Origin: a virus
Lineage: Duplodnaviria; Heunggongvirae; Uroviricota; Caudoviricetes
Direction: 5' to 3' (one strand)
Length of the DNA: 64,000 nt
IMG/VR virus record: IMGVR_UViG_3300027708_003081
Shown piece by piece: positions 29,776 to 47,380 of the stretch (position 1 is its first letter; each line of letters starts with the position of its first letter). The position numbers were made by a program, and so were the translations under genes. Under the pieces are notes generated by a model. That model did no database searches. It saw only the letters and a program-made list of their open reading frames with translations, and was not told the DNA's origin.

Positions 29776-30522
29776 TTAATTTTTCAATTTAGAATGAACA
29801 ATTAAATATAATTTTTTAAATCTTTTAATTGATGTTCTAATTTCTTTAGTATTTAAATTTGTCATTTCTCTGAGTGAAAGTAAAATTACATTTTTGTTAA
29901 ACTTATTATTTTGTGAACCAAAAAATATTGTTTGGTAATTATCAAAAAGTTCAACTAATGCCATCCCTAATTTTTTTTCATTTTCACTTAATTCGTCAGT
30001 ATCAATATAATCTTTTAATTCTTTTAAGTATGTTGCAATAACAAAATCCATTTCTAAAACTTCATCATCAATTGTATAGGACAAATCTGCACGTTCTTCC
30101 AAAGCGGATGATATATCCTCGTAGGAAACTTTTCTATTTGTTTCTTTTTGGTCTTTAATAATTTGACCCATCAAGTAATTTTTACATATAGTCCCAAAAT
30201 AAGAATAAGCCTTTTTGTTCTTTGAAGGCTTAAACTTGTCCACTTTAGTCATTAAAAATGAATGGGTATCAGTATGAATTTCTGTAAAATCCATATCTTT
30301 CCTATATAATTTGTAACGTCTTATTATTGAAGAAATCATCTTATCTAAAGGATGCCTAAGAAATTGGTTATAAATCTTATTTTTTTCTTCTGATGTTGTA
30401 GCAATTAAAAATTCTCTAACCGCATTTTCTTCTCTAACATCAAAATAGTTTTCCTTTATTGCCTTTCTTCCTCTTTTTTTCGACGAAACTTCTTCAGAAA
30501 CACCTGATAAAGATTCTATCAT
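29776..30522 (-). CDS. Phage late-transcription sigma factor (T4 gp55-like)
   Basis: Sigma region-2-like KFKPSKNKKAYSYFGTICKNYL, preceded by basic NYF and helical segments as in gp55 homologues. Confidence 0.65.
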   Translation of the reverse strand: MIESLSGVSEEVSSKKRGRKAIKENYFDVREENAVREFLIATTSEEKNKIYNQFLRHPLDKMISSIIRRYKLYRKDMDFTEIHTDTHSFLMTKVDKFKPSKNKKAYSYFGTICKNYLMGQIIKDQKETNRKVSYEDISSALEERADLSYTIDDEVLEMDFVIATYLKELKDYIDTDELSENEKKLGMALVELFDNYQTIFFGSQNNKFNKNVILLSLREMTNLNTKEIRTSIKRFKKLYLIVHSKLKN

Positions 30523-31328
30523 TATGCGGTTTGAGGTTCATATTTTATGACTCTATCGTCAGCGAAGAAGTACTCTTTTTTTGCAGTTTGTACCCAAAAT
30601 TTAACTTCATCATCAGTCATTTTTGTGTTACCAAATTTGTAATCCCAAAATAAAGATTCTTCTCTCATATTAATATGTTTGTATCCAATTTTAGGGATAG
30701 ACATAATTGATACGGAATTATATGTTAATCTAAGTAAAAACTCATAAATAAATGTTAATTTCATAGACGGTTTAAATCCACCAAAATCTTCAACAATTTG
30801 TTTTTTAAATACCGCTCCCGCAGTTTGAAAGTTCTGATAATTATGTAATGTTTCGTTTGTAAGATATCCCATTTCCATAGTGAAATTCGCTGCAAATGTT
30901 GCTTCATTAGTAAATCCAGCAAAAACATTTTTATTATCGGTATCCACAACTACAGGTAAAAACCCTTGTACTTCAGGATAAGCATCCATATATTTTTTAA
31001 CATTTTTAAACCAAATTGCCGAGTATTCATCGTCAAATTCAAATAAAGAAAACCAATTTCCTTTAGAATTTTTAATTCCATAATTTACTTGTTCACAATA
31101 GTTAGGTTCTTTATCCCACAACAATTTGTTAACCGTTAATGTTCCAAAATCATATTTGTTTAAATGTTCAATTAAAGTTTTTTCTGATGTATGAACAACA
31201 ACTAATTCAAGTGGTTGTGCTGATTGATTTTGAATTGATTTAATTGCTTTATCAAAATACTCAGAAAAATCCTTTTCTAATGATGTTTTGATAGGTAAAA
31301 TGATAGATATTGATAAATTATTTTCCAT
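30522..31328 (-). CDS. Glycosyltransferase family 2 (GT-A)
   Basis: ISIILP...AIKSIQNQ...N.GI...FEFDDEY; ATG at 31328 preferred. Confidence 0.8.
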   Translation of the reverse strand: MENNLSISIILPIKTSLEKDFSEYFDKAIKSIQNQSAQPLELVVVHTSEKTLIEHLNKYDFGTLTVNKLLWDKEPNYCEQVNYGIKNSKGNWFSLFEFDDEYSAIWFKNVKKYMDAYPEVQGFLPVVVDTDNKNVFAGFTNEATFAANFTMEMGYLTNETLHNYQNFQTAGAVFKKQIVEDFGGFKPSMKLTFIYEFLLRLTYNSVSIMSIPKIGYKHINMREESLFWDYKFGNTKMTDDEVKFWVQTAKKEYFFADDRVIKYEPQTA

Positions 31329-31329
31329 A

Positions 31330-45466: not shown

Positions 45467-45467
45467 A

Positions 45468-46169
45468 TTATTCTAAATTTTTTAATTTTTTTATTATATC
45501 AATTAATACCTTAACATCTTTCTCACAATACTCCACAATCTCTTTTAACATATTCTTATTCCAATATGCTTCGTGTACACTCTCTCCATTAACCGCACCA
45601 TCTTTAGGTGTTGGAATATCCATAGTACTACAAAGTAAATCTAATGAACCTATAGATGTGTAAGCCCCATATTGCCATATTTCTTTGGTGTCTATGGCCT
45701 TTATTTCCCAAGGCTTTGTATCATAACTTGGAAGTAATGATGGTGGCATAAGTCCGTTGATAATCATTCTTTTTGCGAGCATCGGTATATCAAAATTCTT
45801 TAAGTTGTGTCCGCAAAGATAAAAATCTAATTTACCACACCTATTTAAAAGAGTTTGGCAGTCCTTTAATAATTGTTTTTCATCATCACCTGAAAAGGTT
45901 TGAGTTTTAATCTCATCTTTATCGGTAACAAACGCCACACTAACACAAACTATTTTTGCAAATTCAGGAACAAGTGCAGCCCTTTTAACAAAAATAGAAT
46001 CTAAAGATAGTTCCGAATCTTCAGGAAATCTTTTTTGAAACCAATCAATATATTTGATATACTGTTCCGCAACTTTTGGATTTGTTTTTTTACAAGTTTC
46101 ATAGTTTTTACAACCACCAACCGTTTCAATATCCAAGAATAAAATCTTTGTTAAAGGTGTTTTTATCAT
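45468..46169 (-). CDS. DEDD 3'-5' exonuclease (PolB-exonuclease related)
   Basis: LFLDIETV, GHNLKNFDIP, EYCEKDV. Confidence 0.88.
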   Translation of the reverse strand: MIKTPLTKILFLDIETVGGCKNYETCKKTNPKVAEQYIKYIDWFQKRFPEDSELSLDSIFVKRAALVPEFAKIVCVSVAFVTDKDEIKTQTFSGDDEKQLLKDCQTLLNRCGKLDFYLCGHNLKNFDIPMLAKRMIINGLMPPSLLPSYDTKPWEIKAIDTKEIWQYGAYTSIGSLDLLCSTMDIPTPKDGAVNGESVHEAYWNKNMLKEIVEYCEKDVKVLIDIIKKLKNLE

Positions 46170-47380
46170 TTAATTAAACTTTTATAAAATTCTGCTCTAT
46201 TTTTTGTTACAACATTTAAATCATATGTGTCTTTAACCGTTTCATATAATCTCTCCCCCATATCTTTTGCCATATTTGGGTTCTTAATCAACTTCTCAAT
46301 AAACTTTGCCCAATCACTATGGTTTCTGTTTTCATCAACAAGAAGTGCGTTTCCATCCACAAATTTACCATTATCTAGACAATGTACCAAATCTATTGTG
46401 TAAGGTCCAATATTTGAAGCTATAATTGCTTTCTTATAAAACCCTGCCTCAATAACTTTTAATTGAGATTTAACTCTATTAAAGATAACATTTTTGATTG
46501 GAGACAAAGATACGTCAAATTTTGAATAATTCCTTGCATAAGATGTTACAGGTTTTGTCCACACTCTAATATATCCTTCATTTTTCTCATTTGAATAAAC
46601 TTCATCTTTAAAGTTATCCAAGAATTTTTTGTATTCAGGGGTAACGTTTGAATAGTTTTGTGTGAAGATTTTTTCATATGCAACCCAAACAGTTTCGTGT
46701 GGTAAGATATTTCTTTTCTTTTGTTCTCCCGTTTCTTGATTGATTTCGGTCATAGTACCTCTTGTATCAAATCCACAAAGAACGAACTGCATTCTGTCTT
46801 GAAATGACGATAATTTACTAAATGATTGGTCTAACAATTGTAAATCGTGAAGATGCGAAGAACCTCCTAACCAACCAATTCTTAATCTATCTGATTCAGG
46901 TGTTGGTTCACAAAATTGTGGTTCTTTTGGATTGATTGCGTTTGGAAAAATAAAAACATTTGGATTAATCTTTTTAATTTCATCCGCAAATATTGTTGTG
47001 GTTGTTGTTACGTAATCCGCAACTTTAAGATTTGCAACAATCTTTTCGTTAATTTTATTAACTCTAATGATATCGTGAATAGGATGTTCTTTTCCTGGCA
47101 TCCAATAATCATCCAAATCACATATTGTAACAATACCCATCGATTTGAGTTTTGCAATAATTTGAAGTGATGCGTCAAAATCAGGTGTAATACTTCTATG
47201 AAATGCGACAATCTGATATTGAGACCAAAAGTTAACATCATTAACATCTGGGTCAAATACGATATCTACGTGAAATTCATCACCATATAGATTTTGTAAG
47301 AAAATGTGAGGGTCGACAGAACGGAATTTACCAACTCCTGTTCTATCTGAAGGGAGTACTAATACTTTAATTTTAGACAT
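46166..47380 (-). CDS. GT-B glycosyltransferase (GT4-like)
   Basis: DLDDYW, FPNAI, IGWLGGSSH..DL, FNRVKSQLKVIEAG, IIASNIGPY. Confidence 0.8.
   Translation of the reverse strand: MSKIKVLVLPSDRTGVGKFRSVDPHIFLQNLYGDEFHVDIVFDPDVNDVNFWSQYQIVAFHRSITPDFDASLQIIAKLKSMGIVTICDLDDYWMPGKEHPIHDIIRVNKINEKIVANLKVADYVTTTTTIFADEIKKINPNVFIFPNAINPKEPQFCEPTPESDRLRIGWLGGSSHLHDLQLLDQSFSKLSSFQDRMQFVLCGFDTRGTMTEINQETGEQKKRNILPHETVWVAYEKIFTQNYSNVTPEYKKFLDNFKDEVYSNEKNEGYIRVWTKPVTSYARNYSKFDVSLSPIKNVIFNRVKSQLKVIEAGFYKKAIIASNIGPYTIDLVHCLDNGKFVDGNALLVDENRNHSDWAKFIEKLIKNPNMAKDMGERLYETVKDTYDLNVVTKNRAEFYKSLIK

Follow-up and report, generated by a model that had tools for sequence, protein, structure and literature searches.

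A conserved glycosyltransferase core with a swappable glycan cassette in freshwater jumbo phages: a candidate system for O-glycosylation of virion proteins

The 64,000-nucleotide stretch of the IMG/VR virus record IMGVR_UViG_3300027708_003081 analyzed here (hereafter, the window, meaning the whole of this stretch) contains a single minus-strand operon that runs from position 47380 to position 29776, with gaps of -50 to +125 nucleotides between open reading frames (ORFs), and encodes nucleotide-sugar enzymes together with nine glycosyltransferase (GT) genes comprising 10 GT domains supported by Pfam, PHROG, folds or Atlas. The window is part of the genome of a T4-like jumbo myophage, with the terminase (10451), portal (12253), prohead protease (15558) and major capsid protein (18182) assigned to PHROG head families; genes are denoted by their first coordinate throughout. 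Five of the GT genes score over the Pfam cut-offs, namely, GT2 (30522), PF13712 + PF00535 (43359), GT11 (39521), Fringe/GT31 (41337) and exostosin/RXYLT1 (34976), and four fall under the cut-offs yet are supported by other means (GT-B 31330, GT-B 46166, GT11-like 35776 and GT-A-like 41963). A preliminary description of this DNA had placed about ten GT-like genes at 30522-47380. The count holds except for a third GT4-type GT-B that was not confirmed, and the region is one operon, which runs on to a sigma factor gene at 29776-30522.

Comparison of 80 related loci, in which the gene order past the variable block was read only where contigs extend far enough, reveals a conserved core with a serotype-like cassette, an architecture that the preliminary description had missed. 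The first gene of the operon, a GT4-like core GT-B (46166..47380; phrog_7162, E 5e-46; GT4 fold), has 587 relatives in IMG/VR and is preceded by a promoter-like intergenic element on the same strand (47381..47433), with a conserved TATA(T/C)TT box that recurs in most of the 33 loci inspected and that may resemble the Bacteroidota -7 box; a scan for sigma-70 promoters and terminators gave results at chance level. The next core genes, all on the minus strand, encode a 3'-5' exonuclease-like protein (45468..46169; PF10108, E 5e-14), adjoining the GT-B gene in 80 of the 80 loci, a dUTPase (44861..45466; PF00692, E 4e-27; 80 of 80 loci) and a two-domain GT at the cassette border (43359..44855; PF13712 + PF00535), and this four-gene order is kept in 79-80 of the 80 loci. 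On the other side of the variable block, the core consists of PhoH (33249..34004; PF02562, E 4e-62), a conserved gene (32672..33265) that is syntenic even in distant phages and has no family match, its earlier assignment as HAD being unconfirmed, a small conserved gene (32386..32679; 55-94% in relatives, syntenic in locus L296), a GT-B of the Agt/AmGGT family (31330..32382), a GT2 that is a candidate initiating enzyme (30522..31328; PF00535; likely start ATG at 31328), and a gp55-like sigma factor, the last gene of the operon (29776..30522; Atlas 0.99 to viral sigma clusters). The top PDB match of the latter is T4 gp55, but the similarity is weak (E 0.17); the sigma gene overlaps the stop codon of the GT2 gene, an arrangement that is kept in the distant contig L298. 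The entire arm from PhoH to sigma retains synteny at 27-43% identity, and GT2 30522, which belongs to a 268-amino-acid family with 4433 homologs, is paired with the Agt-like gene across the same identity range.

The cassette of the window, also on the minus strand, starts with a possible GT-A (42616..43356) that has no match in Pfam, PHROG or NCBIfam and has homologs only in other cassettes. It is followed by a GT-A-like enzyme resembling GT8/GT77 (41963..42619; Atlas feature score of 0.92 to a GT8 cluster), the structural neighbors of which in Atlas are GT8/nucleotide-diphospho-sugar transferases fused to GT2 or TPR; a GT31 (Fringe or beta-1,3-transferase-like; 41337..41966; PF02434, E 3e-13), with a beta-1,3-glucosyltransferase (E 4e-10) and core-1 synthase (E 8e-9) as the best PDB relatives; and a gene with a G-x-G-D motif from a 20-member cassette family (40660..41340). 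Neither 40660 nor 42616 was assigned to a family by Pfam, PDB profile or profile comparison; together with 40299 and 37833, described next, they are the four cassette genes left unassigned. Next come a small DUF4254-like gene (40299..40676; weak PF14063), with members of the DUF6165/DUF4254 family in 23 other cassettes; a GT11 of the alpha-1,2 fucosyl/colitosyl-transferase family (39521..40348; PF01531, E 2e-26), from a GT11 cluster present in 56 loci; an Fcl/ColC-like GDP-4-keto-6-deoxy-sugar epimerase-reductase (38598..39536; NF047922, E 4e-56, below cut-off); a DUF6492 gene (37833..38591; PF20102, E 1e-6) that is also found near ColD in L044 and L045; a ColD-type GDP-4-keto-6-deoxymannose 3-dehydratase (36657..37814); a second, divergent GT11-like gene (35776..36531; PF01531, E 0.007; phrog_2644, E 3e-7) that clusters with GT11s; a GT114 homolog of the chlorovirus A075L beta-xylosyltransferase (34976..35767); and, as the last cassette gene, GDP-mannose 4,6-dehydratase (Gmd; 34008..35018; PF16363, E 5e-120; TIGR01472, 408 bits). 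The two GT11 genes and the Fringe-like GT31 gene named in the preliminary description are thus borne out.

The cassette of the window is about 10 kb long. Cassettes of this kind encompass 700 ORFs in 120 families across the 80 loci, and the 17 complete variable blocks represent 10 layouts. The family representatives include GT2, GT10, GT11, GT92, FkbM- and TylF-type methyltransferases (sugar O-methyltransferases) and UDP-glucose dehydrogenase; some cassettes also bring aminotransferases and acetyltransferases. The relative G006 is 92-99% identical to the window in most core genes yet carries a different cassette, and the DNA identity between the two stops and restarts at the cassette borders, with shared sequence as far as 34006 and then from 44844 onward. 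Another cassette is likewise found in a 308-kb contig whose GT-B is 97% identical. The border gene 43359 itself retains a conserved N-terminal GT-A domain and exchanges the C-terminal domain, which is a GT2 in the window (a group of 9 sequences) and a GT4 in the representative of the longer group found in 68 loci. Contigs from an independent run span both cassette junctions with zero differences, and contigs from a lake RNA library, which carry no information on level or strand, cover the whole stretch (30 of 30 bins), so that the locus is real and not an assembly artifact. If the product is a virion coat, the rapid exchange of cassettes suggests selection at the particle surface, with adsorption, evasion of decoys or depolymerases, grazing or stability as the potential factors. 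Two further features of the variable gene complement are the NAD synthase gene (PF02540) in many cassettes (L011:10779-11573 and 17 other loci), the product of which might, as a guess, amidate a sugar acid instead of producing NAD, and an extra Fcl-like gene between the exonuclease and dUTPase genes, outside the usual cassette, in L066, L076 and L078.

The families of several cassette enzymes provide clues to the glycan that is made. Gene 34976, previously labeled GT47 exostosin-like, does score above the exostosin/RXYLT1 cut-off but is really a GT114 homolog, with a full-length match to chlorovirus A075L (PDB 8q8i/8avq/8asa, E 1e-54), the beta-xylosyltransferase that builds the core of the chlorovirus capsid N-glycan (PMC11571054). 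As read from the alignment, with the residues taken from PMC11571054, 34976 keeps the equivalents of D73, N148, R158, N202, R208, K34, D36, S72, T112 and H122, that is, the catalytic base Asp73, the phosphate-binding Arg158/Arg208 and the residues that bind Fuc/Gal of the acceptor. Given that the acceptor-binding residues of A075L are retained, the acceptor of 34976 most likely is an oligosaccharide, and the homology suggests that a 6-deoxyhexose carries a branch of the chlorovirus type; no UDP-Xyl synthase is seen in this cassette. A word search of IMG/VR with the GT114 gene gave no match, although a 23% match is present in locus L044 and a weak one to RXYLT1 in L160. The ColD-type protein 36657 matches PDB 2gms with E 1e-68, compared to E 2e-34 for perosamine synthase, and keeps the active-site histidine (FGHHIST) in place of the aminotransferase lysine. 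The window therefore encodes Gmd, ColD with the histidine and a ColC/Fcl-like reductase, for which GDP-colitose is a plausible product; the profile match of 38598 does not separate Fcl from ColC. With these colitose donor genes in a soluble, cytoplasmic glycan-building system, the deoxyhexose donor envisaged in the preliminary description is upheld; family names are not enough to deduce its core-1/H-antigen-type structure, and the GT114 homolog suggests a chlorovirus-like branch instead.

Among the core enzymes, GT-B 31330 falls into the Agt/AmGGT family both by profile (8xsg, E 3e-28) and by fold (VIA Z 30.5; next 25.0; T4 AGT 18.9; model pLDDT, the predicted local distance difference test, 96). 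Agt proteins extend glycopeptides with glucose in a cytoplasmic protein-glycosylation system. GT-B 46166 shows a generic GT4 fold (Z 23), small-molecule GTs being the top structural matches and T4 AGT scoring Z 17, and has homologs with 25-28% identity in cultured Stephanstirmvirinae (Phapecoctavirus/Justusliebigvirus); no homologs from cultured phages were found for 31330 or the N-terminal domain of 43359, and those of 30522 are marginal (E 3e-4). One of the cultured phages, a Phapecoctavirus (L161, NC_048196.1 103701-106845), has four adjacent GT genes beside the primase/helicase, two of them homologous to 46166, and also shows strong palindrome avoidance.

A possible acceptor emerges from motif statistics; genome-wide tests were run on the relatives G001-G004 (309-326 kb), G006 and G007. 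The motif S-[G/A]-x-T occurs 64 times in the window against 19 expected, with the common GGTxTG fiber repeat accounting for only 3 of the 64 hits. With repeats masked and local composition used for the expected counts, the observed-to-expected ratio is 2.1-3.7 in six genomes of the lineage versus 0.9-1.6 in T4, immuto, Mel-JY01, Schickermooser and P-SSM2, with no enrichment in T4, and SG.T, SA.T and TG.T occupy ranks 1-3 among all X-X-.-X patterns in the lineage. The swapped pattern T[GA].S is not enriched in the lineage, and the N-glycosylation sequon N-x-S/T shows no enrichment either (ratio 0.9-1.0). The excess sits in virion-like proteins poor in lysine and glutamate, including products of sheath-like and baseplate-region genes (in the head and baseplate ORFs of the window, 10 motifs versus 1.9 expected), whereas in soluble proteins rich in these residues the motif is slightly depleted (32 versus 43, p 0.04).

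The major capsid protein (18182..19990, plus strand; phrog_138) is a candidate acceptor. It contains a variable insertion of about 235 residues (approximately residues 112-347), which, in each of 73 distinct capsid proteins, carries [S/T]-[G/A]-x-T (mean 3.3 versus 0.72 expected, and 0 outside the insertion), at four recurrent sites where S and T as well as G and A exchange. The insertion is the sole divergent part of the protein, with 48-78% identity to G006 inside and 92-100% outside; it also has a conserved pair of cysteines. A conserved virion-like gene beside the operon (50023..52632, plus strand) encodes another candidate acceptor, with four S-[G/A]-x-T motifs versus 0.8 expected in the window; 4-14 such motifs are present in 61 of 61 orthologues, and a TPT stalk is found in 45 of these 61 but is missing in the other 16 and in the window copy. 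This protein shows a weak match to the proprotein-convertase P-domain, and its orthologues range from 630 to 1785 amino acids through gained TPT stalks and other inserts. The third candidate is a Thr/Ser-rich protein, probably a fiber (53502..58379, plus strand; T 17%, S 11%; 33 motifs versus 5.2), followed by a TPTPT-stalk protein (58381..58926, plus strand), a possible second class of acceptor and the sole TPT-rich ORF of the window, compared to 7-10 TPT genes in complete relatives. The preliminary description had emphasized Thr/Ser-rich fibers and TPTPT stalks. The former are represented by 53502; the latter were overstated as a key substrate, given that there is one such ORF and that the stalk of 50023 is dispensed with in 16 of the 61 orthologues that all carry the motif. 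There is no apparent link between cassette size and the number of TPT genes (G004 combines a small cassette with seven TPT genes, and the clade of the window has large cassettes and few TPT genes). The likelier acceptor appears to be the [S/T]-[G/A]-x-T motif rather than the single TPTPT gene. The locus and its surroundings combine soluble viral GTs with candidate acceptor sites in structural proteins, with the exposure of these sites suggested by their variability. The motif statistics represent a lineage-specific constraint, for which a structural role or shared ancestry is a possible alternative cause. In G001 and G003, S-[G/A]-x-S reaches counts of 479 and 420 that are gone after low-complexity masking and come from long Gly/Ser repeat proteins, possibly collagen-like.

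A hydropathy scan detects no clear transmembrane (TM) helix in any ORF of the operon, in agreement with the preliminary description, and 0 of the 700 cassette ORFs of relatives have two or more TM helices; accordingly, no multi-TM ORF that could be a flippase, polymerase, ligase or membrane initiating transferase (of the Wzx/Wzy or ABC type) is present in the operon or among these 700 ORFs. The earlier inference that the locus, having no flippase, is not devoted to O-antigen was nevertheless too strong. GTs that assemble O-units are mostly soluble, often have no TM helices and could use host export, and Gmd, ColD and Fcl combined with GT11 make up a standard O-antigen module. The main rival to virion glycosylation is, indeed, that these enzymes remodel a surface glycan of the host (O-antigen units on undecaprenyl-PP, capsule or a Bacteroidota protein O-glycan) in the cytoplasm, via the host flippase and polymerase, resulting in a block of superinfection or altered grazing. 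The hypervariability of the cassette suits such serotype logic, P-SSM2 has homologs of Gmd (50%), the Fcl-like protein and GT11, and similar islands in pelagimyophages (PMC7029224) and cyanophages (PMC12801897) have been interpreted in this way in the literature. This scenario is hard to reconcile with the four phage-specific GTs that are fixed across the lineage, out to 27% identity, because a host O-unit acceptor would vary; furthermore, it leaves both the virion-restricted motif and the A075L homolog unexplained and finds no membrane partner among the 700 cassette ORFs. A weaker argument in the same direction is that the homologs of ColD in phages show 80-82% identity compared to 37% in a word-limited scan of GTDB. 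Taken together, host-glycan remodeling appears rather unlikely, and DNA and other carriers rank behind it.

In another rival reading, the conserved outer GTs would glycosylate phage DNA as protection from restriction, and the cassette would vary the sugar; modification of DNA by the outer GT-B and GT2 genes was raised in the preliminary description. The GT genes do adjoin genes of nucleotide metabolism (exonuclease, dUTPase, PhoH), and phage DNA GTs accompanied by epimerases are known; however, in published cases the genes of such GTs are clustered with a hydroxymethylase-type ThyS gene or with genes for a C5-methylase and an oxygenase (bioRxiv 10.1101/2023.12.21.572611). Each of five relatives encodes one thymidylate synthase (ThyA), with the ordinary dUMP-type asparagine, far from the operon, and no hydroxymethylase-type enzyme was found in the relatives. 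Searches of the complete relatives, which divergent oxygenases could escape, detected no Tet_JBP, C5-methylase, AGT or QueC; in particular, PF11440 (AGT) is absent in four genomes, with T4 as the positive control, and AGT ranks 25th-26th in the fold searches of the two GT-B models (the GT-A genes were not folded), so that it is not the closest relative of either. Prolyl-4-hydroxylase-like 2-oxoglutarate/Fe(II) oxygenases (PF13640) are present, 2-3 per genome, in three of the four complete relatives (G001:28772, 152970 and 162023; G002; G003) and would be compatible with base modification, but G004 has all four GTs without PF13640. For the same reason, glycosylation of TP stalks dependent on a prolyl hydroxylase (through hydroxyproline), which was considered separately, is not required. 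Moreover, GATC is purged from these genomes (0 observed versus 182 expected in the window, 0 versus 1013 in G001 and 0 versus 856 in G004), being absent in 67 of the 80 loci and also in G006 and G007; CATG is reduced to 11 versus 161 expected in the window, and GACGTC is strongly depleted as well, whereas T4, with its glucosylated DNA, keeps 191 GATC of 566 expected. Thus, the phage DNA behaves as if unshielded from restriction and, given the lack of a base-modification handle combined with strong avoidance of restriction sites, DNA is a highly improbable target, the least probable of those considered. The 13 loci of the 80 that have regained GATC suggest host groups with different restriction systems.

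Given that the homologs of the phage enzymes act on protein-linked glycans and that the motif is restricted to virion proteins, the latter appear to be the best-supported target, and we estimate the probability that the phage O-glycosylates its virion proteins with its own soluble enzymes at roughly 60%. From the comparisons above, we infer the target, linkage, order and purpose of the glycan as follows. An oligosaccharide would be made by the phage in the host cytoplasm and put on Ser/Thr residues of virion proteins, starting with an invariant linker built by four conserved GT activities, namely, GT2 30522, the Agt-like GT-B 31330, the GT4-like 46166 and the N-terminal domain of 43359. Judging from the behavior of the respective families, the initiator probably is GT2 30522 or the N-terminal domain of 43359, with Agt-like 31330 responsible for the second step. 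The acceptor would be [S/T]-[G/A]-x-T where it is exposed on proteins of the capsid, sheath, baseplate and fibers, and TPTPT stalks could serve as additional, dispensable acceptors. The cassette would then add the strain-specific outer part, with a beta-1,3 link formed by GT31, colitose or fucose derived from the Gmd-ColD-Fcl pathway and transferred by GT11, and a GT114 branch, to yield a "serotype" coat. With a conserved promoter-like box preceding its first gene and a sigma gene at its end, the operon could be expressed ahead of the late genes, a timing equally compatible with other targets; because the operon ends in a phage sigma factor, the enzymes probably are present before the head and tail proteins are made.

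This reconstruction draws on the 120 families among 700 soluble cassette ORFs around a conserved core, the different cassette in the near-identical phage G006, the catalytic and oligosaccharide-binding residues kept in the A075L homolog 34976, and the closest similarity of 31330 to Agt/AmGGT. Several observations weigh against it. The operon is intermixed with nucleotide-metabolism genes and lies outside the tail cluster; sets of colitose and GT11 genes are classic O-antigen genes; and no initiating protein O-glycosyltransferase of a known family (GT60, GtfA/B, NGT or OGT) was identified, with no match to a GT27 or GT60 initiator, as in mucin-type or GT60 systems, in family scans of the window operon and only non-significant PDB profile matches for GT2 30522 (E 0.06). 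The motif sites in orthologues share ancestry, a preference for turns in the structure could look like a sequon, and the motif is not enriched (0.88) in a cultured phage that has 46166 homologs. Finally, AmGGT itself prefers free oligosaccharides and does not accept glycopeptides, which is also in line with a third alternative, namely, that the products are glycosylated host proteins (counter-defense), a glycolipid or a free oligosaccharide and that the motif is structural or marks phosphorylation or cleavage. The generic GT4 fold of 46166, with small-molecule GTs top-ranked, and the NAD synthase-like and other non-GT genes in some cassettes would fit as well. The many sequential GT families and sugar-tailoring enzymes, however, imply a complex chain that needs a carrier, and S/T and G/A exchange at motif sites across unrelated virion proteins when control phages show no enrichment to that degree; hence this alternative seems distinctly improbable. 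The parts of the preliminary description that hold up, then, are the soluble system and the deoxyhexose donor, with virion proteins as the best-supported target; the key role of TPTPT was overstated, and the core-1/H-antigen structure does not follow. A more specific scheme can be proposed only tentatively, and we lean slightly against it in its entirety: sequon-directed cytoplasmic O-glycosylation in a lineage of freshwater jumbo phages that is both large and abundant, with an undescribed family of initiating enzymes, an [S/T]-[G/A]-x-T acceptor, and a conserved core glycan plus a serotype-like outer glycan on capsid, sheath, baseplate and fibers, the outer glycan of this phage containing colitose and a chlorovirus-type branch, as a phage counterpart of O-antigen variation.

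By gene content, the phage fits a moraphage-like freshwater jumbo myophage. The sequences that carry this system come from freshwater metagenomes, the complete relatives have genomes of 309-326 kb, and the nearest cultured capsid proteins are 38-42% identical to that of the window. Several other features of the window can be mentioned. Homing-endonuclease-like genes, recognized by position and sequence, are patchily distributed (1645-2061 and 20068-20784 in the window; in L001, an extra 261-amino-acid ORF that immediately precedes the operon). Three tandem Gly-rich paralogs (60462-63484; 328-338 amino acids) have a GC content of about 0.45 versus 0.30 elsewhere and no homologs in five relatives. 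Some unrelated small proteins (4795, 22687-23154 and 23157-23768) have in common the N-terminal leader pattern (I/L)TE(N/T/S)(D/E)(L/I)xx(I/L)(V/I)(K/R), and TATTTAT(A) is located just 5' of many structural genes on both strands (e.g., 6625, 10438, 12216, 21055, 53469, 58929 and 63490), likely a late-promoter motif.

Phage virion glycosylation (in mycobacteriophages), chlorovirus capsid glycans, hypervariable GT islands of aquatic myophages and the four moraphage core GTs have already been published. A literature survey of incomplete coverage found no description of a core-plus-cassette operon, of a phage GT114 in which the A075L residues are intact or of [S/T]-[G/A]-x-T as an acceptor, and nothing on phage-encoded colitose or the GTs of Stephanstirmvirinae. 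The large GT islands of aquatic T4-like phages have so far been labeled "LPS (lipopolysaccharide) genes" or auxiliary metabolic genes, although their target had not been demonstrated. The present locus can be broken down into four invariant enzymes, a single exchangeable cassette and one specific motif as the candidate acceptor, which makes an in vitro test possible without phage culture. If virion O-glycosylation is confirmed, phage particles would be covered by serotype-like glycans subject to diversifying selection, capsid glycosylation chemistry (GT114) would be common to phages and the giant viruses of algae, and a new soluble toolkit for protein O-glycosylation (sequon and colitosyl-, GT31- and GT114-type enzymes) would become available for glycoengineering.

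Among the known systems, the closest to this phage are the moraphages, freshwater jumbo myophages of Bacteroidota hosts with four core GT orthogroups and variable islands (Perez-Hernandez et al. 2025, PMC12619734), a study that already names DNA, serotype and virion glycosylation as options for these GTs. Moraphages are characterized by the four core GTs, ClpA, PhoH, dUTPase, a peptidase and Hsp20; of the moraphage-type traits, our phages have the four core GTs, PhoH, dUTPase, ClpA and the peptidase (the latter two recognized from sequence only), T4-like head genes, freshwater habitat and a genome of more than 200 kb. The complete relatives, at 309-326 kb, are slightly larger than the moraphage maximum of 307 kb; the likeness is one of gene content, and the operon, swappable glycan cassette, enzyme families and acceptor motif go beyond that study. 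The T4 AGT/BGT and 5mYOX-GT clusters have hydroxymethylase-type ThyS or C5-methyltransferase/TET near the GTs, unlike the locus described here. With the Actinobacillus NGT/Agt system (AmGGT, PDB 8xsg/8xsh), GT-B 31330 shares a fold subfamily (E 3e-28; Z 30.5) at 18% identity, and no NGT partner is seen in the window. The "LPS" or host-recognition islands of cyano- and pelagimyophages (P-SSM2, S-SCSM2R, HRC; PMC7029224, PMC12801897) are likewise large, hypervariable sets of GT and nucleotide-sugar genes in aquatic T4-like phages, but they are located among tail-fiber genes and read as host O-chain modifiers; P-SSM2 shares Gmd, Fcl-like and GT11 genes with the window but has no Agt-like core gene, and its motif excess is only a symmetric 1.4-fold. 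In mycobacteriophages, phage-encoded GTs reportedly modify capsid and tail tube proteins (Freeman et al. 2023, as cited in later papers), with few GTs and with the glycans at C-termini, in contrast to the approximately ten GTs, own donor synthesis and swappable cassette found here and to a capsid protein that has no Ser/Thr C-terminal tail and carries the candidate sites in an internal insertion. The matches listed show no homology to mycobacteriophage GTs. Chlorovirus PBCV-1 (A075L/GT114, the A118R GMD and the A295L GMER) shares with the present system a virus-encoded, soluble, cytoplasmic glycan pathway with an A075L-type enzyme and its own Gmd and Fcl-type enzymes; the PBCV-1 glycans are N-linked, belong to the capsid of a eukaryotic virus and are chemically solved, whereas here N-x-S/T is not enriched, the donor set includes ColD, and the glycan is predicted from gene content.

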